A stretch of 53,281 nucleotides of DNA from a virus. The stretch spans positions 1-53,281 of IMG/VR virus record IMGVR_UViG_3300025133_000004. One strand, 5' to 3'. The position numbers and the translations under genes were made by a program. Shown one piece after another: positions 15,442 through 42,351 of the stretch. Numbering within the stretch: position 1 is the stretch's first letter; every line of letters begins with the position of its first letter. Under the pieces are notes generated by a model. The model was not told the DNA's origin. It saw nothing but the letters and a program-made list of their open reading frames with translations, and searched no databases.

Positions 15442-15963
15442 ATGTCACTTAGCGGATTAGACATTACTCTAGCAGAAGAAGATAAATTTGAAAACGATAC
15501 TTTAATTACTGTAGCTATAAAAAGTAAAGAAGGTTTTCTTAGGACTCCTGAATGGGATAATGCACAATGGACATGGGGATATGGAACAGAAGCACCTCTT
15601 CCAAAAGACCGAAATGCAGAAGTTCCTACAGATTTAACCATAACTAGAGAACAAGCTCAAGAAGAACTTCTTGGTTATTTAGATAGAGAAATAATAAATA
15701 AATTAAATACTTATTCAGAAAGAAATAATTATAATTGGAATGATACTCAAAAAGAAGGTCTTACAAGTTTCTTATATAATTTAGGTTTTGGCGCACTAAA
15801 TCAACTTACTGCTAATGGTACACGTACTGATGAAGAAATAGCAGAAAAGATGCTAGAATATAATAAAGAAAGAAATCCAGAAACAGGAGAACTTGAAGTA
15901 AGCAGAGGCTTAACAAAAAGAAGAATAGACGAAAGTGATTATTTTAGAAGAGGCATGAATTAG
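15442..15963 (+). CDS. GH24 (T4/lambda-type) lysozyme
   Basis: KEGFLRTPEWDNAQWTWGYGTE (catalytic Glu context) and GLTKRRIDESDYF (RRxxExxLF-like). AGGAAG lies upstream of the ATG. Confidence 0.75.
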   Translation: MSLSGLDITLAEEDKFENDTLITVAIKSKEGFLRTPEWDNAQWTWGYGTEAPLPKDRNAEVPTDLTITREQAQEELLGYLDREIINKLNTYSERNNYNWNDTQKEGLTSFLYNLGFGALNQLTANGTRTDEEIAEKMLEYNKERNPETGELEVSRGLTKRRIDESDYFRRGMN

Positions 15964-18900
15964 TGGGAATAAAAAAGAATACTGAAAATATCTGGGGTGT
16001 TTTAAATGCCGATAATATTATAGCGCCTGAAAAAACACAAATAGGATTAAGTGGGCCTTCTAGTTTTATTCAAAAAAATCATGCTGATTTAAGGAATGAT
16101 CCACGTTATCAAGCAGAAGCCGAAAAGTTTCTTAGTTACTTATCAGAACAAGAAGGGATGGCAGAAAAATTAACAGGTGGTGCAATATCTAACGATATTT
16201 TTGAAACACTTAGAGATGAAGAAGGCCGTTTACTTACAGTAATTGATAGAGCTAGAGTTTTAAGAGAGGCTCCTGAAGAAATTAAACAAACATATAGATA
16301 TCTTAGAGATAATTTTGAAGCTTCTAAAGCAGGTAGTTTTGGCGAAATGTTAAAAGCTACTTTTGATAGAGGTGTAGATATGTTTGCTGATCCTATTAAT
16401 TTAGCTTTTGCATTGGTAGCTCCGGGTTTAGGTAGTGCTGTTGCTAGGACTTCTACAGGCGCAGCAACTAGAGTTTTAACAAGTCAAGCAGGTAAACAAA
16501 ATGTTAAAAAGACTTTAAATAATATTGCAGCGGCTAATGCAGATTCTTTATCTCCAACAGTTACAGGCGTATCCGCAGCATTTGAAGGCGGTATTTGGAC
16601 AGGCGTAGAAAATGCTAATAGACAAGATATAAATATAACTACTGGATTACAAGATGCTTTTAGTGATGGGGACTTTGCCTTGTCTGTAGGATTAGGTATT
16701 GGGCTTGGAGGTAGTTTAGGTTATGGTGCAAGTAAATTATTTTCTAGACGTACAACTAATGTAGCTGAAACTGGACAAAGTACTACCCCCACAGTATTGC
16801 CTCCTCCAAATTCTTCAATTAATTCAAGTGCTAGTAGTACTGCTGAACAAGAAGCAGAAACGCTTGTATCAGGATTATTTAATAAAGTTGAATTAAAAAC
16901 TGATAGAAGAGGTAAACAATATTACGATAGGCAAGGAAATCCTGAAGTAAATTTAACATTATTAAAAAATTTAAAAAAAGAATTAGGCAATCAATACGAT
17001 GATGTAAGAATAGCTAATATAATACTGGCAATTAAAGATACTATTTTTAAAAAACTTACACCTGACGAAGTAAAGCAAGGTTTAAACTTTGCTACTAAAC
17101 AAAGAACTTTACAAATTAATGATATTGATCCTGAAGTATTAAAATTGTTTGAACAATATGGATTAAAAAATTCTGAAATTCAAACAGCTATAACTTTTGT
17201 TAAAAATACTTATATGAAAGATGCAGAAAAAACTGCAACAAAAGTTTTAAAAGGTCAAAAAGTAAAAGTAACTCAAACTATAGATTTAGACGATGCACAA
17301 ATAGGCAGTCTTGCCGACCAACTAGCTGCTAAAACTGGTGGAGGACAAAGAACTTCTGAAATTTTAACAGATGCTATACAAGAAGCTAATGCTACCAGAG
17401 GTATAACTAATATAGCTAGAGAAAGTTCTATACTAAGAAAAGTTTTAGATAAAACTTCTGACTTTAATGCTAGATATTTAACAGGAAAAGTTACTGGTAT
17501 TTTTAATAAGTATCAGGGTCTTAGCCCTAATGTTATAAATTCTTTTCAAGAAAGAATTGTATCTGCTGTATCTAATTCTTGGAAAAGAGGAGAGTCTATA
17601 GTAAGAGATACAAATGATTATGGTAATGTATTTAATATAGAATTTGGTAGACTTGGAATGGCTTGGAAAGCTATTTATGATCCTATTGCTGAAACAACTC
17701 TTAAAGGTGGATATAAAGAAGAAATAGATACTTTACTTTCTAATGCTATTAGAACTAATGATATAAAAACTTTAGCTAGAGAAACACAACATTTAGGTAA
17801 AGATGTAAGAAAATCTTTATTTAATATAGTTAAATTTGGTAGAAGTCAACTAAAAGAAATGGGTGATGAATCACAAGGAAAAGGATTAGTAAATAATTTA
17901 ATAGATAATTACCTACCTAGATTATGGAAAAGATCAGAAATAGAAAATAATAAAGAAGATTTTATTAGTCTTCTTGAAAAGAATGTTAATTGGAAACAAC
18001 ACGTAGATTTAGAAGAAACTATTGATGCCAATGGAAATATAATTAGACGGCAGCTTACTAATAAAGAAAAAGCAGAAAAAGTATGGGAAGAATTATTAGA
18101 TATTAAATTTCAATTTGGTAATGATTCTGGTACAGGCATGAATAGTTTTTTTGCTAGAAGACAATTAGAATTAAAAGATGAAACTGCCTTTACTAAATAT
18201 TTAGATAACGATTTAAATAATGTAATGCTTAGTTATCATCGTTCTACTGCTAAAGCTATAGCAAAAGATACCGTATTTGGTGTAAGAAATATAGAAGATT
18301 TTAATACTACTTGGTTTCCGGCTTTAGAAAAAGAAATGAGAGCTAATGGAGCTACAACAGAATTAATAAACCAAGCAAAGAAAGACATGACTGATGTATA
18401 TCAAAATGTTACTGGAGAAGGTTTAGATAGATATAAGGGGTGGAAAGGCACGGCAGCAGATTCATATATGTTATTTAATAGAATGGCTTTATTACCCTTA
18501 TCAACACTATCAAGTCTTTCAGAAATATTTATTAACATTTCTAAAGCAGGTGTTAAAACATCTTTCGCAGGATACAGAGATGCTATATTTAGTGGTTCTA
18601 AAAAAATGTTTGATGATTCTTTAAACGGTCTTCAAAAATCTTTTAATATGACTAGTAAAGAAGCAATGCACGAACTCAATCAAATGGGTACGGCTTTAGA
18701 TCAAGCTTTTGCTGACTACGCAGATAGATTAGGAGGTGATGCACTATCTAGTCCTAGAATGAGAAATGTTAGTAATAAATTTTTTAGGTTTACACTTTTA
18801 GACCAATGGACTAAAGGAGTTCAAACAGCTTCATATATTATTGGAAAAAGATTAATAGCAGAAAATTTAGAAAGCATTGCTTCACATATGCCTTTAATAC

Positions 18901-21900
18901 AAACAGGTAAAATATCTAGAAGAGTACAAAGACAAATAGATGAACTAGCTGATCTTGGTATAAATTATAATGAAGGTGTATCTTGGCTAAATAAAGGAGC
19001 TAATATAGAAGACGATTTTTACAGAAAACTTAAAGAAGGAGCAAATACATATACTAATGAAGTTATTTTAAATCCTAGCGCACAGTCAGGTATAAAACCT
19101 ATGTATATGTCAAATCCAAAAACTGCAATCCTCGGTCAACTATTAGGTTACCCCGCAGCTTTTACTAATACAGTTATGAAAAATATGGCTAGACAAATAG
19201 CTAGAAATCCTGAGACTGCTTTAACTCAACATATTCCTGCTGTAGGAATTATGACAGCAGTAGCTATGTTTACTAATGCTGCTAGAACTCAAGGCGAATC
19301 TTTGGAGGGTAAACCCCATGAAGTAATTGGTGGTGCTTTGGCTAGAGCAGGATTTAATGGTTTACCTGCTGATATGTTTACAAGAGGTAGAACGGCTGCT
19401 GAAATTTATCAAAGTCCTACTGCTTATATGACAGGGTTTGGACCGCTTTGGGGTGATGCTTATAAACTGGGAGTTAGTGCAGATGTATTTTCTATACTAG
19501 GACAAAAAATTCCGGGCTACGGAGCTTTTAATGCAATTTTTGGTGCTACTGAAGCCACTGAAGATTGGCCTGATAAGTATAGAGAAATGTTACGGGCCGG
19601 AGATACTTTTTTTCAAAAATCTACTACTCCAGAACAAGATGTAGTTTCTAGAAAAAACTGGGAAAAAGGCGGTGAAGTTTATAATGTACCACAAGTTACT
19701 GAAGAACCTGATGAACGTATAGATAGAATGACAGGACTTCCATATGATGTACAAGCGGGAGGAGCTTTTATAGACGAAGAAGATCGCCAAGGTTTTGCAT
19801 TAGGAACAATAGTTTCAAAGGCGGCTCCGGTTTTAAAATCTAAACTATCAGAAGCTCTTGGTGAATTAGCAGATAAAGGTGAAAATATTCCTATTAATAG
19901 GTTAGTAAAAAGATTACAAAACAGAGGTGTTCGGAAAGATGAAATAGAGGCGGCAGGTATTGATGAAGACGGTAATGCATGGCATTCACCAACACAAGAA
20001 TCCGAAGAAGCAGCCGCTCAAATTAGGACTGTAGTTACTAGATCAGGTAATCTAGCTTATACTCCTGATGGTTTAAGAGCTATAGATAAAGCTAGAATGG
20101 ATAAACCTTTAATTGATTCTAACTTTGTAACTGCAAAAGAAACTTTATTAGAACATAATACAGCATTAGAAAAATTAGAATTTGATGCTGAGCTTGCCGA
20201 ACGAGGAATTCCTTATGATGGCAAACAGCTTGAGGCAGATTTAATAATAAATGAAGAAGGCGCATTTTTTGACGAATATACTCCCCTAGATGTTAATGAT
20301 TTAACATTAGAAACTAGAATATTTCGTGATCCTAGAGGCAAGCAAATAGGTGCTGAATCTAAACATTTTGTTCTTAATTTGCCAAAGGGTAGTGCGGCTA
20401 TTAAAGCGGGATATAAAGACGATCCTTATAGTTATCATGTAAGATTTGATGAGATTGATCCCGCTCTTAGAGTTTTTGAAATGCAAAGTGATTTAGCAAT
20501 AGGTAGAAAAACTAGGTTGGCCTTATATGATATTGTGTTTGAGCCAACGAAGTGGAAGAAAAAATCTAATGATAATGTGTATAATGTATTGTTAGATTCA
20601 TTTAATGTTAATAAAAAAGATATTAAATTTTCAAAAGAACAAGGCAAACAACTAGGTATAGATGTAAAAAACTTAAATGCTTTATATAAAGAAGCTGCAA
20701 GTATGCGTAAAAACATTAAAGAATTTGCTTTGGAAGATGAAAAGCTTTATCACTTAGATACATTATTCGTGCAATATGACTTAAATTTAGAAAGTTTTGT
20801 AAAAGAAAGTGATCTTATAGCCGATTTAAAATCTTATATAGAAAAAACAAAATATTTACCCCAACGTGGAATAAATAAAGATATAAAAAATTATATATCA
20901 AAATTTGAGTCCCAAAATATTTTAAAAAATAAAATAACAGATAAAGTACAAGATACTCTTAATGCAATTAATATATCAAAAGTTATACCTGAAATAGATG
21001 TTTCTCAAAATATAATAAATAGAATGATAGCTGAAACAAAAGAAAGAGGGCTTCCCGAAATTAGTTTTTTGATTGGTAGAGATACTCCAGAAAGTAGAAA
21101 ATATATGGGTGTCCCGGCTTATAAAGAATGGAAGGTTAAGCCTAATAGATCAAAAGGTCATATGCAAAGAAGTTATCATATTCAAGAATATTATGAAGAT
21201 ACAGTAGCTCCACAAGTACAAAAAATTGCAAAAAAAATAGGAGCTACTACTCGTTGGGACGATAAAGGATACTTAACTATAGTATTACCTGAAAAAGAAT
21301 TTACTTTGCCTATATATAAAAATGAAGGTGGATATATTTCTCGTCAAAAATATATGGCAGGTACGTTAGCTAGAACAGGTGCTAATATAATAAAAGGTTT
21401 ATGGCACGGTTCTCCACATAGTGTTCCTACTTTAAAAGCTAGTAAATCTATTGATTCTAATGCTCTTCAATTAGGCAGAGGAGTAGCTGCAACAAAAGAT
21501 AAAAAAATAGCTGAGTCATATCTTGATGCAACACCCAACCGTTCTGTAGGTTTATCAGAAAAAGCTCTTTTAGAAGAAAGAACTGCTAGAGGTTCTTCTA
21601 CTCCTACTTTATATGAATTAGAAGCACATATAAATGAGGATGAAATAATTAGAACAGGTACAAAGTTTGCCGATCAACCGACTCCTGTGCAGACTAGAAT
21701 AGATGCTATAGCAAAAGACTATGATATTCAGTTGTCAGATAAAGACAAAGATAGTAAAAGAATATTTTATATTTTAAAAAGAAACTTAGAAGATAAAGAT
21801 TTAAAAGCAGAAGATATTTTTAAAAACTATGGAATTAAAGCTGCAAAAAGAGATTTAAGGGAAACTTCTTTAGAAGGATTAAGTCTTGGAGGAAATGAAG

Positions 21901-23354
21901 AATATTCTTTTTATGATGATAGTGTACTAGAAATTGTAAGTAAAAACATTAAAACAGGAGGGCCAGAAAATCTTATACAAGGAGGTACAGCTTTAATAAA
22001 GAAAGCAAAAGAAGCGGGAATGGATACTGAGCGCATAGTGTATCACGCTGCTGGTGAGCGATGGGCTACAGACGGAATAACTTTTGATGAAAAATATTTT
22101 CTAGATAATTACATGGATGATATTAGTCCCGAAAATCATATGGTCTATTTAGGTACTGATGCAGATATATCTTCTTTTTATGCACAAAAAAAATGGAACA
22201 GTAAAGCTGAAGCAGCCGACAGAGCAGCAGGAAGAAAAATTAAAAAAGACTACTGGACAACCCCCGAAATACTTCCTATGTTTTTAAAGGGACCGGGATT
22301 AAAATTAAAAATAGATAAATGGGCACCCTCTACTTATAAATCTCCAGACAACAAGGCTATGCCGTGGGGAAAATGGTTTATACAGGATGCTATGGATCAA
22401 TTAAATATTAAAACCCCTGTAACTAAAAAGTCTGATATGATAAAAGAAATTTGGAAGGAAGCAAAAAAACAAGGCTATGGATATATAGAATTTATTAATG
22501 TTGAAGATGTTAGCAAAGCTGCTGATATAACTCCCCAAACTCAGATCATACCTTTAGGCCCAGATAAAGTAAAATCAATTTATGCAAACTATAATCCAGA
22601 TGCTACTAAAGAAGACCTAATGCGAAATCTATTTTCAGCCACAGGCGGCTCAATCAGAAAGCAATACAAAGACGGTGGAATTCTTAAAGGCGGTTTAGGA
22701 AACAGAATTGTTAGAAGTTTAAGATTTTTACTTAATACAAAAGATGCTATAAACTATTATAAAGAAGGCTATAGACAAGAAGCAATAGAAGCAGGAGCTA
22801 GAGCAGTTGGAATAGGTGCAAGAGAACAACGTCTTAATGAAAGAGATGCAGCTAAAGCTATTAATGATGCAGTAGCAGAAGGAATACTTAAAGAAGAACA
22901 CGCTGTACCAGTAGATGATTATGGGTTTACTAAAGGAAATGTTGACGAACTTTTTAATGCGGTCAACCACGGTCTTTTATCTTTCAGATATGGTACTAAT
23001 CCTGCTATGAGAGGGCTTCTTCAATTAAAAGAAGGTGAAAAATTTGGACAAGCGGCAGAAAATCCAATAGATAGTTCTGTAGATTCTTTTAATAATTCAA
23101 GAGGTTTTTATTTAGAACAACAAGGACTAACTGAATCCGCAGCTTTACAAGAAATGATTAGAAGTAAACAAAGAACAGATTTAAAATTAAATCTAGGCTT
23201 ACCTCTAGTGCGAGGGCAAGATTTTATTTTTAATTCAGAAGATTTAAAAGCCGTAGGAACACAAGAAACATTAGGCCCATTATATACTGGTAGGATTGAA
23301 CGCAATAAAGGCGGTAAATTACTAGGCAGCTTACATAGGAGCAACTGTAAATGA
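15963..23354 (+). CDS. giant virion-associated protein (2463 aa), candidate polyvalent ejected protein
   Basis: Single uninterrupted ORF with a GTG start overlapping the lysozyme stop (TAGTG). Glycine-zipper hydrophobic segments near the N-terminus. Two ART-PolyVal-like segments (LWHGSP...GRGVAATKDKKIAESY...LYELEAHI and VYHAAG...VYLGTDADISSFYA...MFLKGPGLKL). Confidence 0.8.
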   Translation: MGIKKNTENIWGVLNADNIIAPEKTQIGLSGPSSFIQKNHADLRNDPRYQAEAEKFLSYLSEQEGMAEKLTGGAISNDIFETLRDEEGRLLTVIDRARVLREAPEEIKQTYRYLRDNFEASKAGSFGEMLKATFDRGVDMFADPINLAFALVAPGLGSAVARTSTGAATRVLTSQAGKQNVKKTLNNIAAANADSLSPTVTGVSAAFEGGIWTGVENANRQDINITTGLQDAFSDGDFALSVGLGIGLGGSLGYGASKLFSRRTTNVAETGQSTTPTVLPPPNSSINSSASSTAEQEAETLVSGLFNKVELKTDRRGKQYYDRQGNPEVNLTLLKNLKKELGNQYDDVRIANIILAIKDTIFKKLTPDEVKQGLNFATKQRTLQINDIDPEVLKLFEQYGLKNSEIQTAITFVKNTYMKDAEKTATKVLKGQKVKVTQTIDLDDAQIGSLADQLAAKTGGGQRTSEILTDAIQEANATRGITNIARESSILRKVLDKTSDFNARYLTGKVTGIFNKYQGLSPNVINSFQERIVSAVSNSWKRGESIVRDTNDYGNVFNIEFGRLGMAWKAIYDPIAETTLKGGYKEEIDTLLSNAIRTNDIKTLARETQHLGKDVRKSLFNIVKFGRSQLKEMGDESQGKGLVNNLIDNYLPRLWKRSEIENNKEDFISLLEKNVNWKQHVDLEETIDANGNIIRRQLTNKEKAEKVWEELLDIKFQFGNDSGTGMNSFFARRQLELKDETAFTKYLDNDLNNVMLSYHRSTAKAIAKDTVFGVRNIEDFNTTWFPALEKEMRANGATTELINQAKKDMTDVYQNVTGEGLDRYKGWKGTAADSYMLFNRMALLPLSTLSSLSEIFINISKAGVKTSFAGYRDAIFSGSKKMFDDSLNGLQKSFNMTSKEAMHELNQMGTALDQAFADYADRLGGDALSSPRMRNVSNKFFRFTLLDQWTKGVQTASYIIGKRLIAENLESIASHMPLIQTGKISRRVQRQIDELADLGINYNEGVSWLNKGANIEDDFYRKLKEGANTYTNEVILNPSAQSGIKPMYMSNPKTAILGQLLGYPAAFTNTVMKNMARQIARNPETALTQHIPAVGIMTAVAMFTNAARTQGESLEGKPHEVIGGALARAGFNGLPADMFTRGRTAAEIYQSPTAYMTGFGPLWGDAYKLGVSADVFSILGQKIPGYGAFNAIFGATEATEDWPDKYREMLRAGDTFFQKSTTPEQDVVSRKNWEKGGEVYNVPQVTEEPDERIDRMTGLPYDVQAGGAFIDEEDRQGFALGTIVSKAAPVLKSKLSEALGELADKGENIPINRLVKRLQNRGVRKDEIEAAGIDEDGNAWHSPTQESEEAAAQIRTVVTRSGNLAYTPDGLRAIDKARMDKPLIDSNFVTAKETLLEHNTALEKLEFDAELAERGIPYDGKQLEADLIINEEGAFFDEYTPLDVNDLTLETRIFRDPRGKQIGAESKHFVLNLPKGSAAIKAGYKDDPYSYHVRFDEIDPALRVFEMQSDLAIGRKTRLALYDIVFEPTKWKKKSNDNVYNVLLDSFNVNKKDIKFSKEQGKQLGIDVKNLNALYKEAASMRKNIKEFALEDEKLYHLDTLFVQYDLNLESFVKESDLIADLKSYIEKTKYLPQRGINKDIKNYISKFESQNILKNKITDKVQDTLNAINISKVIPEIDVSQNIINRMIAETKERGLPEISFLIGRDTPESRKYMGVPAYKEWKVKPNRSKGHMQRSYHIQEYYEDTVAPQVQKIAKKIGATTRWDDKGYLTIVLPEKEFTLPIYKNEGGYISRQKYMAGTLARTGANIIKGLWHGSPHSVPTLKASKSIDSNALQLGRGVAATKDKKIAESYLDATPNRSVGLSEKALLEERTARGSSTPTLYELEAHINEDEIIRTGTKFADQPTPVQTRIDAIAKDYDIQLSDKDKDSKRIFYILKRNLEDKDLKAEDIFKNYGIKAAKRDLRETSLEGLSLGGNEEYSFYDDSVLEIVSKNIKTGGPENLIQGGTALIKKAKEAGMDTERIVYHAAGERWATDGITFDEKYFLDNYMDDISPENHMVYLGTDADISSFYAQKKWNSKAEAADRAAGRKIKKDYWTTPEILPMFLKGPGLKLKIDKWAPSTYKSPDNKAMPWGKWFIQDAMDQLNIKTPVTKKSDMIKEIWKEAKKQGYGYIEFINVEDVSKAADITPQTQIIPLGPDKVKSIYANYNPDATKEDLMRNLFSATGGSIRKQYKDGGILKGGLGNRIVRSLRFLLNTKDAINYYKEGYRQEAIEAGARAVGIGAREQRLNERDAAKAINDAVAEGILKEEHAVPVDDYGFTKGNVDELFNAVNHGLLSFRYGTNPAMRGLLQLKEGEKFGQAAENPIDSSVDSFNNSRGFYLEQQGLTESAALQEMIRSKQRTDLKLNLGLPLVRGQDFIFNSEDLKAVGTQETLGPLYTGRIERNKGGKLLGSLHRSNCK

Positions 23355-39461: not shown

Positions 39462-39728
39462 TTACCTCCTGTAATTTTTAGGGTAGTTATCTTGCCACCA
39501 TGTCCATTCAGGCATAGACCTATCTGTTGGTGGGATTTCTTTAATTGTACCTCCTGTTTTAAAGAACTCCTCAATCTGAGAAGCAACATTCAGGGGTTCT
39601 TTTGTTTTTACTTTGTCGGGGTTGTTGATTACCTCTTGATGGGCCATCAGTTTAGCTAGACCTGATGGGAAAGTGATGTGTTTCTCTCCGTTGATTTCGT
39701 TATAGGGCACCTTTAGTTTGTTGCTCAT
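39462..39728 (-). CDS. hypothetical early protein (88 aa, shortened start), first gene of the leftward operon
   Basis: The ATG at 39726-39728 is preceded by AAGGAGATTGCAAG. The longer track ORF would include the promoter. Confidence 0.55.
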   Translation of the reverse strand: MSNKLKVPYNEINGEKHITFPSGLAKLMAHQEVINNPDKVKTKEPLNVASQIEEFFKTGGTIKEIPPTDRSMPEWTWWQDNYPKNYRR

Positions 39729-39777
39729 CTTGCAATCTCCTTGTTTTTCAGGCAGTTGGGTGGCTTTTGTGATGTTC

Positions 39778-39807
39778 AGCCTAGCACACTCTGGCACCCA
39801 GTGTCAA
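39778..39807 (-). promoter_or_regulatory. sigma70-type promoter of the leftward operon
   Basis: On the minus strand: TTGACA (39807-39802), 18-nt spacer, TAGGCT (39783-39778), about 50 nt upstream of the first ATG. Confidence 0.5.
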
Positions 39808-39817
39808 CCCCCCCTAA

Positions 39818-39840
39818 ATATATATTGGTTTAATATATAT
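39818..39840. promoter_or_regulatory. perfect 9-bp AT inverted repeat next to the -35 element
   Basis: ATATATATT-GGTTT-AATATATAT read directly. Candidate operator or UP-like element. Confidence 0.35.
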
Positions 39841-39875
39841 GGTGAAGGTTTAAATTTTTAGTTACTGATTATTAC

Positions 39876-39901
39876 AATAAAAAATGGAACATCCTTGTTC
39901 C
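39876..39901 (-). terminator. short hairpin plus U-run (weak terminator or attenuator)
   Basis: On the minus strand: GGAACA-AGGA-TGTTCC followed by ATTTTTTATT. Confidence 0.3.
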
Positions 39902-39932
39902 TAATACTACTACAGGAATTTATTTAACTCTT

Positions 39933-40000
39933 TAATTTTCGGTCAACGCTATTTAAATTTTCGGTCCACTTCAATACAAATATTTTTAATTTCGGACTAC
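39933..40000. repeat. three direct iteron-like repeats AATTT(T)CGG(T/A)C(A/C/T)AC
   Basis: taattttcggtcaac (39933-39947), aaattttcggtccac (39955-39969) and ttaatttcggactac (39986-40000). On the minus strand the first reads TTGACC-18 nt-TAAATT, which is promoter-like. Confidence 0.55.
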
Positions 40001-40016
40001 ATAAATCTAATCACTG

Positions 40017-40060
40017 CAAAAAAAAATAAACTCTCTTAATTCAATTAAGAACTAAGAGAG
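40017..40060 (-). terminator. rho-independent terminator of the 68-aa gene
   Basis: On the minus strand: CTCTCTTA...TAAGAGAG stem followed by TTTATTTTTTTTT, directly after the stop at 40070. Confidence 0.7.
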
Positions 40061-40069
40061 CTTAGTAAG

Positions 40070-40276
40070 TTACTTAACTCTAGAGATTAAACCTTTTGAG
40101 ATAGTAACTTCAGCGTAAAATTCTCGCTTAAAACCAGTGATGTGAGGTCGGTTAGAGCCATAAATTACTTTATTAGGAGCATATTCTTCTCCGAATATTG
40201 AAGTCTCTGTGTAATTCAGTGGCTCACCGACCGCCTCGGCTAAAACTTTTTTAGTAGGATAATTTAAAACTAACAT
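40070..40276 (-). CDS. hypothetical protein (68 aa), stand-alone cassette
   Basis: Track ORF with AGGAGAACATT before the ATG and its own terminator. Confidence 0.6.
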   Translation of the reverse strand: MLVLNYPTKKVLAEAVGEPLNYTETSIFGEEYAPNKVIYGSNRPHITGFKREFYAEVTISKGLISRVK

Positions 40277-40380
40277 AATGTTCTCCTGTAGTGAGTAAAA
40301 TTTTTTGAGTCCTTCACCCGCTGAGGGCGAACAAAAATTTTACGGTAGGAGAACATTATGTGCAAGTAAATTATCCTACA
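40252..40380. repeat. imperfect palindrome 1: mirror copy of the RBS, start codon and first ~12 codons of the 68-aa gene
   Basis: Left-arm blocks aggataattta, acataatgttctcct and taaaattttt recur as reverse complements at 40331-40380. A GC-rich apical hairpin sits at about 40311-40330. Confidence 0.8.
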
Positions 40381-40433
40381 ATAAAATAAAAAAAAATAAA
40401 AAAAAACTCAAAACCTTTTTATAACATATAAAT

Positions 40434-40462
40434 AAAAAAATCCCCGCTATAAAGCAGGGATT
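40434..40462 (-). terminator. rho-independent terminator of the 129-aa gene
   Basis: On the minus strand: AATCCCTGC-TTTATA-GCGGGGATT followed by TTTTTTATTT. Confidence 0.7.
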
Positions 40463-40480
40463 CTTTGACTTCTAAGATGA

Positions 40481-40870
40481 TTAAAATGCAGGTAAACCAT
40501 CTCTCTTGTAGCGCTTCATAACTTTAGGCTGAAGCTTTAGCTTCGTGCTTGTAAGTTTCTTGGGAAACATTCCACTGAACTTAACTGATGAAAAATGCTT
40601 ACGGGGATTTCCATCATATCCAAGGATGGTCTTTCCCTCTGAATCCTTCATCTCTACGATGCATTCAGAACCTATCAGACCCAAGAAGCGTTTGTAACAA
40701 ATGCCTCTCATTGAAAGAGGAATACTTACTTCATCCTCTAAAGTTACATTCAACTGATACGCTGCGGGTTTTGCAACGGTGTTCCAATCAAGAGTAGTGT
40801 CTTGAGTGTCTGCTCCGTTGGCACGAATTAACTCAAGTTTATCTTGAGTTGTGTTAGGTTGTTTAGCCAT
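40481..40870 (-). CDS. hypothetical protein (129 aa, shortened start), stand-alone cassette
   Basis: The ATG at 40868-40870 (MAKQPNTTQDK...) is preceded by CAGGAGAAACACT. The longer track ORF (to 40996) runs through the leader hairpin. Confidence 0.6.
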   Translation of the reverse strand: MAKQPNTTQDKLELIRANGADTQDTTLDWNTVAKPAAYQLNVTLEDEVSIPLSMRGICYKRFLGLIGSECIVEMKDSEGKTILGYDGNPRKHFSSVKFSGMFPKKLTSTKLKLQPKVMKRYKRDGLPAF

Positions 40871-40984
40871 AGTGTTTCTCCTGTAGTGGCTAGTGGATTT
40901 AGCGGAGAGATTTTTTATCCCCCTCACACTTGCAGGGGGGCAATGAAAAATATTGGAGCGCTTTAAATCCACTAGGCTCTTCAG

Positions 40985-41372
40985 GTCTAGAAACACTTGA
41001 GCTAGACGGCCTGACGCGGCTCTTAGATGAACTAAGTTAATTCGGGCGCAGACACTCTTAGACCTACGTTGAATTGGGAGATTGTTGCAGGCAGCGTATC
41101 ATGCTCGTTTAATGTAACTTTAGACGCTTGGATGAAGTAACAGTTATTTCTCTATGAGAGGCATTTGTAATGCTTCTTGGGTTGCATTGATAGGTTCAAT
41201 CGTAGAGAGCTTTGAAGGATGGGAAAGCCCATTTGGATAGTACTGATGGAAATGTAAGCATTGGCTTTGAAGAGGTTAAGTTCGTTCTGTTTAATGTTAG
41301 AAACTTACAAGCAATCTTGCCTAATATGAAGTGTGGAGAAAGAGATGGTGCCCTTACCTGCTTTTGAATCTT
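40985..41372 (+). pseudogene. degenerate plus-strand mirror copy of the 129-aa gene (no intact ORF)
   Basis: Aligns block-wise to the reverse complement of 40481-40870 with many frame-breaking indels. The start codon position reads TTG AGC. The terminator-like hairpin at 41387-41411 has lost most of its U-tract. Confidence 0.5.
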
Positions 41373-41441
41373 AGAAGTTGTATTAGAATCCCTACACTTT
41401 GGGCGGGGATTTTTGAGATTTGTATGTTATATATTAATAAA

Positions 41442-41641
41442 CTCCATAGGATAATTGTGGTTGAAGTTATTAATTAAATAAATTATTGAAATCTTTGAAG
41501 TTCTCCAGAGTTTTAAAATAACTCTACATACTCAGGAGTTTCTGTAATACTTTGGAAACCTGATGTTGAAATCTTGGGAGAACTTCAAAGTTCCTCAAGT
41601 CTTTTACATACAAATCTTCAACCACACTTTCTAGAATGGAG
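41442..41641. repeat. imperfect palindrome 3 / candidate multi-stem structured element without an ORF
   Basis: Paired blocks are ctccat/atggag, tgtggttgaag (41456-41466)/cttcaaccaca (41616-41626) and ctttgaagttctcc (41493-41506)/ggagaacttcaaag (41577-41590). Two local hairpins lie inside. Confidence 0.7.
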
Positions 41642-41723
41642 CAATCTTAGAATTCTACATTGACCTCCAGAGTTCTTAGAGGGTACGCAGAAGCCCCATA
41701 CCCCCCACTAGGGTATATTGTAG

Positions 41724-41752
41724 TTGACATACATTTTATGGTGATTTATAGT
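41724..41752 (+). promoter_or_regulatory. sigma70-type promoter (rightward)
   Basis: TTGACA (41724-41729), 17-nt spacer, TATAGT (41747-41752). Confidence 0.55.
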
Positions 41753-41900
41753 GTAAACTAGTTAGCGCGGGAACTTTAAAGACTTCAAAGGGTCTTTAGG
41801 GGAGGGATGTTGTATTTACTAGGTACGTTAAGGACGGGGGGTGGTTATGTGATGTAGTGAACCTCGGTGGGTTCTATAGTATTATACACCCAAATTACAG

Positions 41901-41925
41901 TTTTGTCAATATGCACTTGACAAAA
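41901..41925. promoter_or_regulatory. perfect 9-bp inverted repeat overlapping the -35 element (candidate operator)
   Basis: TTTTGTCAA-tatgcac-TTGACAAAA read directly. Confidence 0.45.
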
Positions 41926-41945
41926 GCTCAAAATGACTGTATAAT
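41917..41945 (+). promoter_or_regulatory. consensus sigma70 promoter immediately upstream of terS
   Basis: TTGACA (41917-41922), 17-nt spacer, TATAAT (41940-41945). The terS ATG lies at 41956. Confidence 0.7.
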
Positions 41946-41955
41946 ACTGTATATT

Positions 41956-42351
41956 ATGAAAAAAGAATTAACAACAAAGCAACAGACTTTCTTAGACCAT
42001 CTTGTTCAAACGGGAGGTGATCCTAAAGAAGCTGCAAAGTTAGCCGGGTATTCCGAGAATGGACATTGGCAGGTTGTACACGCACTTAAAAATGAAATTA
42101 TAGACTTAGCCTCTAACATACTCGCACAATCCGCACCTAAAGCAGCTATGAAACTTGTGGATATAATGGAATCCAATAGTCCAATTCCGCAAGCTAACAT
42201 TAGAGTACAGGCAGCACAGACAATTTTAGACCGTACAGGTTTAGGAAAACAAGAAAGACTAGATGTTAGTCATAAAGTAGAAGGAGGATTGTTTATACTT
42301 CCGGCTAAAGAAGAGATAGTTATTAATGGAGACACGACAGAGAACGAGTAG
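41956..42351 (+). CDS. terminase small subunit (Terminase_2/P27-like), shortened start
   Basis: LTTKQQTFLDHLVQTGGDPKEAAKLAGYS matches the small-terminase HTH pattern. The longer track ORF (from 41857) would contain the consensus promoter. Confidence 0.7.
   Translation: MKKELTTKQQTFLDHLVQTGGDPKEAAKLAGYSENGHWQVVHALKNEIIDLASNILAQSAPKAAMKLVDIMESNSPIPQANIRVQAAQTILDRTGLGKQERLDVSHKVEGGLFILPAKEEIVINGDTTENE

Follow-up and report, generated by a model that had tools for sequence, protein, structure and literature searches.

The stretch of viral DNA analysed here, the window (53,281 nucleotides (nt); IMG/VR virus record IMGVR_UViG_3300025133_000004, positions 1 to 53,281), carries at 40434-41414 an imperfect palindrome of about 1 kb in which the cassette of an orphan gene, gene 1, faces a non-coding mirror image of itself. 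Sequence comparison confirms the palindrome and shows it to be old, conserved and subject to structural selection. The description that suits it best is that of fold-back (cis-antisense) control on a very large scale, with a pseudogenised, inverted copy of the predicted target gene as its antisense part. In our reading, to which we give slightly less than an even chance, the first early cassette was duplicated head to head in the distant past, and the non-coding duplicate has been retained as a predicted cis-antisense leader. That this "mirror leader" gates translation of the first early gene is proposed from sequence and with equal reserve.

A gene cassette facing its own mirror image

The elements of the region are as follows, with the evidence for each in brackets.

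40435 to 40466, minus strand: gene 1 terminator, a stem of 13-15 base pairs (bp) followed by a U-tract (terminator scan)
40481 to 40870, minus strand: gene 1 coding sequence (CDS), 129 amino acids (aa), orphan; 3' arm of the sense-RNA hairpin (open reading frame (ORF) list, translation)
40871 to 40918, minus strand: gene 1 5' untranslated region (UTR) with Shine-Dalgarno sequence (SD; AGGAG); inner gene arm, paired with 40964-41022 (inverted repeats I2 and I5, minimum free energy (MFE) structures)
40919 to 40940, no strand: small GC-rich apex hairpin (CCCCCTCAC..GCAGGGGGG) (sequence; axis sequences of 11 loci)
40941 to 41431, minus strand: mirror arm, an inverted copy of the cassette (SD, start, CDS, terminator) that is frameshifted and does not code (arm alignment)
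41432 to 41874, minus strand: outer leader of the predicted early-left transcript (six-lineage alignment)
41881 to 41909, minus strand: early-left promoter, TTGACA-N17-TATAAT (promoter scan, 12/12)
41917 to 41945, plus strand: divergent rightward promoter, 12/12, with the small and large terminase genes (terS, terL) and structural genes downstream (promoter scan)
40234 to 40396, minus strand: gene 2 leader palindrome (inverted repeats I6 and I11; nine lineages)

The original prediction, made from the letters of the window, had described an imperfect palindrome of this extent, and arm alignment, repeat finding and folding all confirm it. Alignment of 40420-40930 with the reverse complement of 40930-41440 gave 395 matches, 46 mismatches and 140 gap columns (score 244), compared with scores of 3.3 +/- 2.1 (maximum 10) for shuffled controls. 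Repeat finding independently recovered a collinear series of inverted-repeat blocks (I2, I4, I5, I7, I8, I9, I12 and I22), which include ATGAGAGGCATTTGT (41154-41168), AATGTAACTTTAGA (41111-41124) and AGAAACTTACAAGCA (41299-41313); all three blocks quoted originally are among those found. Folding of the minus-strand RNA against shuffled controls, which had been suggested as a check, showed it to be far more stable than expected (MFE -419.4 kcal/mol; shuffles -224.7 +/- 7.7; z = -25.4), and the plus strand behaved similarly (-493.1 kcal/mol; shuffles -267.8 +/- 9.2; z = -24.6). An assembly artefact is excluded, since the palindrome occurs in three independent JGI and ENA assemblies at 98-99.9% identity.

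The components of the cassette were likewise found where they had been placed: the 129-aa ORF at 40481-40870 on the minus strand, its terminator, called by the terminator scan at 40466-40435, and the GC-rich apical hairpin on the axis at ~40919-40940. The mirror arm, described as having no ORF, contains no long one, and its protein-like similarity is spread over three successive frames (+2, +3, +1), identifying the right arm as a frameshifted copy of the whole cassette. A mirrored terminator hairpin had also been proposed at 41387-41411 on the plus strand. Its outer stem is kept, but the copy is degenerate: the inner stem is lost and the loop enlarged to 11-17 nt in all lineages, so that it does not have the form of an intrinsic terminator and was not called by the terminator scan. 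Complementarity between the arms continues for ~20 nt beyond the T-run on each side (40420-40445 against 41406-41431).

The mirror arm is conserved and co-evolves with gene 1

Ten distinct related lineages, all uncultured marine phages, were recovered with flanking DNA from metagenomes (labelled L0xx below), with gene 1 proteins 43-57% identical to that of the window. The mirror arm is present in all ten wherever upstream sequence exists, and every lineage with enough upstream sequence shares one layout (terS, divergent 12/12 promoters, conserved leader, mirror, gene 1, gene 2). An equivalent apex hairpin is present in all lineages. Full-length mirrors occur in two clades, that of the window and that of L021 and L006. 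In the superclade of L004, L007, L024 and L026 the mirror is shortened to ~275 nt, compared with a gene arm of ~500 nt; it retains partners for positions -59 to +90 (UTR, SD, AUG and first codons) and for the last ~60 nt plus the terminator, the middle having been lost. Relatives with the single gene, no mirror and no covariation had been named as the outcome that would argue for a recent neutral duplication; the relatives recovered carry the mirror arm, and their arms co-vary.

Local alignment scores of each gene against its own mirror (319, 240, 242, 92, 82 and 76) exceed those against the mirror of another clade (22-50; 72 for the sister pair L021/L006), with orthologous genes scoring 128-501 against each other. 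Because independent evolution after the duplication would have equalised own and cross scores, the higher own scores indicate that the arms co-evolve. L021 and L006 are close enough for both arms of both genomes to be aligned as a quartet. In this alignment the arms agree within each genome and differ between genomes at 36 sites, whereas the third informative pattern, which serves as a homoplasy control, occurs at 2 sites; together with the own and cross scores, this gives a positive answer to the test for covariation between the arms that had been called for. A further 85 differences between gene and mirror are conserved in both genomes. The co-varying sites lie in windows of median 14 nt (maximum 35 nt) flanked by these conserved differences, which excludes long-tract gene conversion. 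A separate duplication in each lineage is excluded by the 85 conserved differences and by private derived characters shared by all mirrors, among them an interrupted T-run (GGGGATTTTTGA), and these shared characters point to one ancient duplication.

The mirror is also constrained at positions that it does not share with the gene. Between the L021 and L006 mirrors, mirror-private columns (those differing from the gene in both genomes) are 79% identical and mirror-only insertions 74% identical; as neutral proxies for the same pair, the identical fraction is 0.49-0.60 at third codon positions of neighbouring genes and 34/66 at 4-fold sites. Third codon positions of gene 1 are 0.70 identical, which fits an added nucleotide-level constraint on the gene itself. 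A hidden ORF in the mirror arm is excluded, none being conserved in position or frame across nine lineages. Mirrors from distant lineages cannot be aligned with one another although each matches its own gene, and the constraint on the mirror is therefore complementarity. The original suggestion of an inverted duplication with one decaying copy captures the origin, the mirror being non-coding in every lineage, but not the state, since the copy is ancient and retained, tracks its own gene and has conserved private segments.

A second, smaller palindrome spans the start of gene 2

Gene 2 (68 aa; CDS 40070-40276, terminator 40027-40064) has a ~150-nt hairpin at 40234-40396 in which the leader pairs with the gene's own SD, AUG and first ~12 codons. 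Nine lineages share the hairpin, whose 53 pairs are kept in 98.6% of cells, and 13 of these pairs have changed on both sides, compared with 6.3 in shuffled controls (0/500 reach 13) and 0-1 in slid controls. Compensatory changes, the mark of a conserved structure, are therefore present in both the gene 1 palindrome and the gene 2 hairpin. The pair swaps in gene 2 include CG<->GC and AU<->UA exchanges, pairs changed on one side only are nearly absent, and the leader follows even a Ser/Thr codon change. Such a pattern is a copy-type signature, compatible with template switching (PMC8794818). To judge from its sequence, the gene 2 hairpin is an independent replicate of the gene 1 design on a smaller scale.

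The leader hairpin is missing from cultured phages that have a gene 2 homolog, and the gene 3 leader has no unusual structure (z = 0.21). Several A.C mismatches of the gene 2 hairpin (in mRNA sense) are invariant across all lineages. The gene 1 terminator and the gene 2 hairpin are separated by a very A-rich tract (40380-40440) with runs of 8-9 A on the plus strand.

The mirror arm lies on the predicted gene 1 transcript

The only 12/12 sigma-70 promoters in the 53-kb window form a back-to-back pair, one reading leftward from 41909 to 41881 and the other rightward from 41917 to 41945. A 12/12 promoter directed toward gene 1 is found 750-1000 nt upstream of the gene 1 ATG in all six genomes with enough sequence (the window, L004, L021, L006, L024 and L007), the distance in the window being ~1000 nt. 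No promoter on the palindrome axis is conserved across lineages, and no minus-strand terminator is predicted between the early-left promoter and 40466. Since the leftward promoter lies beyond the mirror, the mirror arm becomes an antisense leader on gene 1's own predicted transcript. Of the three readings originally offered, a minus-strand transcript starting beyond 41414 with an antisense leader is, in its layout, the one best supported by the conserved promoter, the lack of an axis promoter and the lack of an intervening terminator; the RNase III switch attached to it is not supported as stated (see below).

The layout of fold-back control is present in the sequence, where 40846-40901 is complementary to 40964-41022, upstream on the predicted transcript. 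Unlike in a cis-encoded antisense RNA, the antisense segment has diverged from the gene, lies at another locus and belongs to the same predicted RNA as its target. A plus-strand antisense transcript, or a type I toxin-antitoxin arrangement, was rejected because the ~2 kb leftward of the palindrome contain no plus-strand promoter of at least 10/12; the few 10/12 plus-strand matches elsewhere in the early region are inside coding sequence and probably due to chance.

Helix interruptions are true mismatches in the gene-sense strand

In none of the ten lineages does a perfect helix exceed 17 bp (the longest being 14-17 bp), even if G.U pairs in the sense strand are counted, compared with null medians of 20-23 (P = 0.015, 0.018 and 0.14 in the three full-length lineages). 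An uninterrupted duplex of at least 20 bp, or about two helical turns, as expected of an RNase III substrate, is thus absent from all ten, although natural phage sites with internal loops would still be compatible with these helices. The 43 isolated interruptions in the sense RNA comprise 23 A.C, 8 C.U, 7 A.G and 5 A.A mismatches, with no G.U, U.U or G.G. Isolated in-helix transition mismatches accordingly run 23:0 in favour of G.U on the plus strand, that is, A.C in mRNA sense. In the sense RNA, destabilising and stable non-canonical pairs stand at 43:0 within helices and at 31:20 in the non-helical supply (Fisher p = 9e-7). The mismatch classes separate perfectly on the sense strand, and classification on the plus strand leaves 7 anomalies.

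Put in terms of composition, the changes in the leader include 28 losses of G or U, 15 neutral changes and 0 gains, and the mirror arm read on the minus strand is poor in both. The leader arm is consequently weakly self-structured: its self-folding amounts to -0.17 to -0.20 kcal/mol/nt, where a perfect antisense would reach -0.26 to -0.28. Strand-biased mutation was rejected as the source of the polarity, since non-helical transitions are symmetric (14:14) and the flanking non-coding skew is moderate. Judged by this pattern, the data indicate that selection acts on the fold of the gene-sense strand, keeping complementarity while breaking the helices at short intervals with real mismatches; a hairpin of minus-strand DNA would leave the same mismatch signature as RNA. 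Because no helix is longer than 14-17 bp and the isolated interruptions are without exception true mismatches in the sense RNA, the proposed RNase III switch is unsupported as stated, and the interruption pattern looks like avoidance of long perfect double-stranded RNA (dsRNA) rather than provision of a cleavage site.

The leader also alters the predicted fold of the 3' end. Without the leader the terminator folds at -19.1 kcal/mol in the window and at -19 to -22 across lineages. When the leader is included, 26 of the 35 nt of the terminator region pair over long range and 0 pair locally, and the same holds in 7/7 lineages (MFE). In these models the leader replaces the terminator's own stem thermodynamically, which may lead to anti-termination, or the GC-rich duplex beside the U-tract may itself terminate.

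Proposed mechanism

Host RNA polymerase would initiate at the conserved consensus promoter (41909 to 41881), with a start at ~41874, and would transcribe leftward, in order, the ~430-nt outer leader, the G/U-poor mirror arm, the apex and gene 1. The emerging gene arm would zip onto the already transcribed, weakly structured mirror arm, and the resulting duplex of ~370-390 bp, interrupted at intervals of no more than 17 bp, would cover the SD, the AUG, the whole CDS and the terminator region. If this hairpin forms in vivo, gene 1 would be kept translationally silent or tightly dosed by fold-back inhibition, and gene 2 likewise. The interruptions could make the duplex a poor substrate for double-strand-specific RNases or could keep it re-openable, and pairing with the terminator region would affect the fate of the 3' end. 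The co-variation would probably arise by short-range template switching during replication, followed by selection.

A bolder proposition, which we consider rather unlikely, is that the palindrome represents a new class of cis-regulatory element in a DNA phage, in which an inverted pseudogene copy serves as a built-in antisense leader and the first early message silences itself over several hundred bp. Its register would be kept by template switching plus selection and its interruptions tuned as real RNA mismatches, and it would gate the timing or amount of the first early protein and possibly the entry of polymerase into the early operon.

Alternative explanations

Several points weigh against a cis-antisense leader. 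The promoter, the transcription start and co-transcription all rest on prediction, and so thorough a burial of gene 1 leaves its translation unexplained. Although transcription of the plus strand is not predicted here, that strand is the more stable one when folded, by 21-80 kcal/mol in six lineages, and its invariant U.G pairs are the conserved A.C mismatches of the mRNA. Stable-type and unstable-type pairs on the plus strand stand at 36:7 against a supply of 27:24 (Fisher p = 0.002), and tolerated wobbles fit much of the spectrum; in these comparisons the lineages are related rather than independent, and the neutral supply is drawn from one quartet. Complementarity and one window-specific co-variation pass the U-tract, which would fit DNA-level copying or a read-through RNA, and template switching can keep complementarity without any RNA function (PMC8794818). 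Finally, the closest cultured phage, HTVC115P, shares the promoters and has a ~530-nt leader, yet it lacks both gene 1 and the mirror; the element is therefore dispensable for this type of phage. No cultured phage carrying the element was found; in HMO-2011, HTVC033P and CRP-3 the organisation upstream of terS differs, and these phages are uninformative for the palindrome. Much of the strand difference in stability is compositional, given the equal z-scores of the two strands and the finding that the shuffled plus-strand sequence is also ~43 kcal/mol more stable. The same two observations weaken the inference that the plus strand, because it folds better, is the selected structure.

It is improbable that the palindrome acts as DNA, probably as a single-strand hairpin or else as a cruciform, in replication initiation, priming, packaging or end processing, with the gene copy serving as raw material; a cruciform at an origin or genome terminus had been the third of the readings originally offered. 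Terminal and origin palindromes of other systems (parvovirus and poxvirus hairpin ends, N15-type telomeres, herpesvirus oriL) are defined by their place at a physical genome end or a mapped origin and by a dedicated resolvase or initiator. The locus has features that would suit such a role: 7 of the 13 local inverted repeats of the window fall in 40.2-42.0 kb (the promoter pair itself being one), and the palindrome adjoins a conserved GAACTY..RAG array beside terS. The phage also encodes a T7-type replisome, a gp2.5-like annealing protein and a Cas4-like exonuclease, and in T7 such functions expose single strands at genome ends; HTVC115P, however, shares the replication and packaging genes and the promoter pair without having the palindrome. 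The cumulative GC skew has its minimum at 40-41 kb, but it coincides there with the switch in gene orientation and so is not independent evidence of an origin, and the apex is GC-rich rather than an AT-rich unwinding element. Whereas the plus strand gives the more stable hairpin in 6/6 lineages tested and complementarity passes the point of RNA termination, the mismatch classes separate perfectly on the sense strand and not on the plus strand, and arms as unequal as those of the shortened clade would be awkward for a cruciform.

We give similarly low weight to a functionless quasipalindrome whose arms are recopied by template switching or short-patch conversion and in which the only selection is negative, against toxic long perfect helices (as DNA hairpin or dsRNA). 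The mutational pattern is the one expected of template switching, a process documented to create hairpins and keep them complementary (PMC8794818): multi-nucleotide co-changes are clustered in short blocks, the co-variation is of the copy type with CG<->GC and AU<->UA swaps, and there are almost no one-sided changes; what this identifies is how the sequence mutates rather than any function. Copying from the gene does not, however, account for the finding that mirror-private segments and insertions are 74-79% conserved against ~50-55% in neutral proxies. The mirror and axis evolve faster than the gene, with 19 substitutions against 3 in gene 1 (390 nt) between the window and the near-identical strain L003, and 10 of these 22 fall within ~80 nt of the axis, a hypervariable region in strains otherwise 98% identical; over longer times, ~270-500 nt of non-coding DNA have nevertheless been kept in ten lineages despite ~45-57% protein identity. 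One clade has part of the mirror deleted, but the deletion spared exactly the partners of the SD/AUG and of the terminator. A generally palindrome-rich locus and the lack of the element in the closest cultured relative would both suit a functionless repeat, whereas the gene 2 hairpin arrives at the same start-site occlusion with independent sequence.

Divergent transcription from the axis, making the mirror a separate rightward non-coding RNA that resembles gene 1 mRNA, acts as decoy or sponge and ends at the mirrored terminator, is very improbable: the mirror does retain an SD-like sequence, a start-like codon that soon runs into a stop and a plus-strand T-run after the mirrored terminator, with weak promoter-like matches (8-9 of 12) flanking the apex in some lineages, but none of these promoters on the axis is conserved across lineages, the inner stem of the mirrored terminator is missing throughout, and a sense-like decoy explains neither the complementarity-preserving co-variation nor the non-wobble interruptions of the sense strand. 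A diversity-generating retroelement was rejected on the 140 gap columns between the arms and on only 25 of the 43 isolated mismatches lying at gene adenines; no reverse transcriptase was found among the proteins scanned, a subset of the window ORFs. N4-type hairpin promoters were rejected as well, since no virion RNA polymerase was found, the 2463-aa virion protein matches PHROG 7348, and the promoters are of consensus host type.

Genome context, outer leader and neighbouring genes

The window looks like the whole genome of an HMO-2011-type podophage. Pelagibacter phages HTVC115P, HTVC103P and HTVC104P have large terminases 65-66% identical to the one encoded here, and the T7-type replication module comprises a family A polymerase, a primase-helicase, the gp2.5-like protein and the Cas4-like exonuclease; no phage RNA polymerase was detected among the window proteins scanned. 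The rightward genes begin with terS (~41956) and the leftward genes with gene 1 (40870), with ~1 kb of non-coding DNA between them, and gene 1 is the first gene of the predicted leftward early operon. Database records of related isolates begin at arbitrary positions. Gene 1 protein has no relative in Pfam, PHROG, PDB or BFVD, and GenBank phages gave no DNA match to the palindrome and no protein match to gene 1. Its AlphaFold2 model (predicted local distance difference test score 81.5) has no Foldseek match at E<=1e-3, and its homologs in metagenomes form six protein clusters at 50-98% identity.

The outer leader has a mean column identity of 78% with long invariant blocks in the six-lineage alignment, a level of primary-sequence conservation far above that of synonymous sites in the neighbouring genes. 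It contains four or five GAACTY..RAG copies, the perfect palindrome GAACTTTGAAGTTC and a small hairpin at +1, and as a structured RNA it has no covariation support (covariation term +3.3). Conserved in primary sequence without covariation, it looks like a candidate protein-binding array, which might be a pac site (small terminase), an ori/initiator site or an operator/repressor site. The hairpin at +1 has a 5-bp stem (GAACC..GGTTC, 41859-41874, minus strand) that begins exactly at the predicted start of the early-left transcript; in relatives it is GACCC..GGGTC, one compensatory change, and it looks like a putative 5'-terminal stabiliser. The promoter pair is itself an inverted repeat (I1, 41875-41951; 35-nt arms, 74% complementary, 7 nt apart) and is kept in all relatives, including cultured HTVC115P. 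Within the outer leader, an 11/12 rightward promoter (41724-41752, plus strand) opposes the early-left promoter. The predicted convergent transcripts overlap by ~115 nt, and L004, L021 and L007 have a 10/12 counterpart. Every Rfam 15 match in 39800-42100 is far under the gathering score, giving no known RNA family.

The program-called small terminase ORF (41857-42351, 164 aa, GTG start) overlaps the rightward promoter; the real terS start is probably the ATG at 41956, giving ~131 aa, in agreement with the 130-aa genes called in relatives. The 2463-aa protein of the virion module (15963-23354) has no Pfam domain and no PDB sequence relative, its PHROG 7348 match being to an "endolysin"/structural family. 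The third early gene (39462-39797) has a weak match, under the curated cutoff, to the SutA RNA-polymerase-binding domain PF20661, and its L006 homolog has the same weak match. Its product may be a modifier of host RNA polymerase, relevant to read-through of early terminators.

Comparison with known systems

HMO-2011-type phages are pelagiphage-related, abundant and uncultured, and their regulation is essentially uncharacterised; a cis-antisense leader on gene 1, if true, would provide a testable handle on their early gene control. It would be a regulatory RNA born in one step from an inverted duplication of its target, with its register kept by a replication error process, and hence a natural case in which template switching has both produced a functional hairpin and maintained it. 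The scale of fold-back translational control known from bacteria and phages would grow from tens of nt to a whole gene. The mismatch-class test, which compares in-helix non-canonical pairs with the local mutational supply, may also serve more generally to identify, without data other than sequence, the strand of a palindrome on which structural selection acts.

We know of no self-antisense control element of this size. The original prediction stated that no described phage system has this layout. None was found in the literature searched, but the ingredients, namely fold-back inhibition, long-range RNA pairing and template-switch maintenance of hairpins, are known. Fold-back inhibition operates in the read-through transcripts of the IS10 and IS50 transposase genes and through the fbi element of hok mRNA, with tens of nt paired and the transcripts translationally inert. 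As there, an upstream complement here pairs with the SD and AUG of gene 1 and of gene 2; unlike there, the complement of gene 1 is the entire cassette (~480 nt; ~275 nt in one clade), CDS and terminator included, and derives from a co-evolving pseudogenised duplicate. Short helices opened by upstream translation or by cleavage are known from long-distance pairing in single-stranded RNA coliphages (the Min Jou interaction of MS2, and Qbeta) and from RNase III-processed leader hairpins (lambda N, T7 early mRNAs). In common with these, distant pairing hides a ribosome-binding site and the status of the helix toward double-strand RNases matters, but the leader described here has no upstream ORF, and its capped helices of 14-17 bp with true mismatches suggest that cleavage is avoided. 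In plasmid antisense RNAs such as CopA, bulges in the stem protect against RNase III and speed pairing with the target. The palindrome resembles them in having a long stem in which real mismatches and bulges, a number of them conserved, recur at short and regular distances; CopA-type RNAs, in contrast, are separate trans-acting transcripts of 60-100 nt with their own promoters, whereas antisense and target here share one predicted RNA and the duplex is several-fold longer.

Two further comparisons concern how such repeats arise. Template switching creates hairpins and maintains quasipalindromes (Monttinen & Loytynoja 2022, PMC8794818), and as in those the arms here co-change in short multi-nucleotide patches, including swaps that cannot pass through G.U; the mutational mechanism leaves unexplained, however, the retention of the mirror, its private conservation and the strand-specific interruptions. 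Coding palindromes with inverted repeats of up to 284 bp are reported from mitochondrial genes of Nematomorpha (PMC6649704) and share with the gene 1 palindrome long inverted repeats involving protein-coding sequence. There both arms are reported to lie within protein-coding genes and the repeats to be perfect, whereas the gene 1 palindrome is imperfect and has one non-coding arm, placed in the 5' leader.

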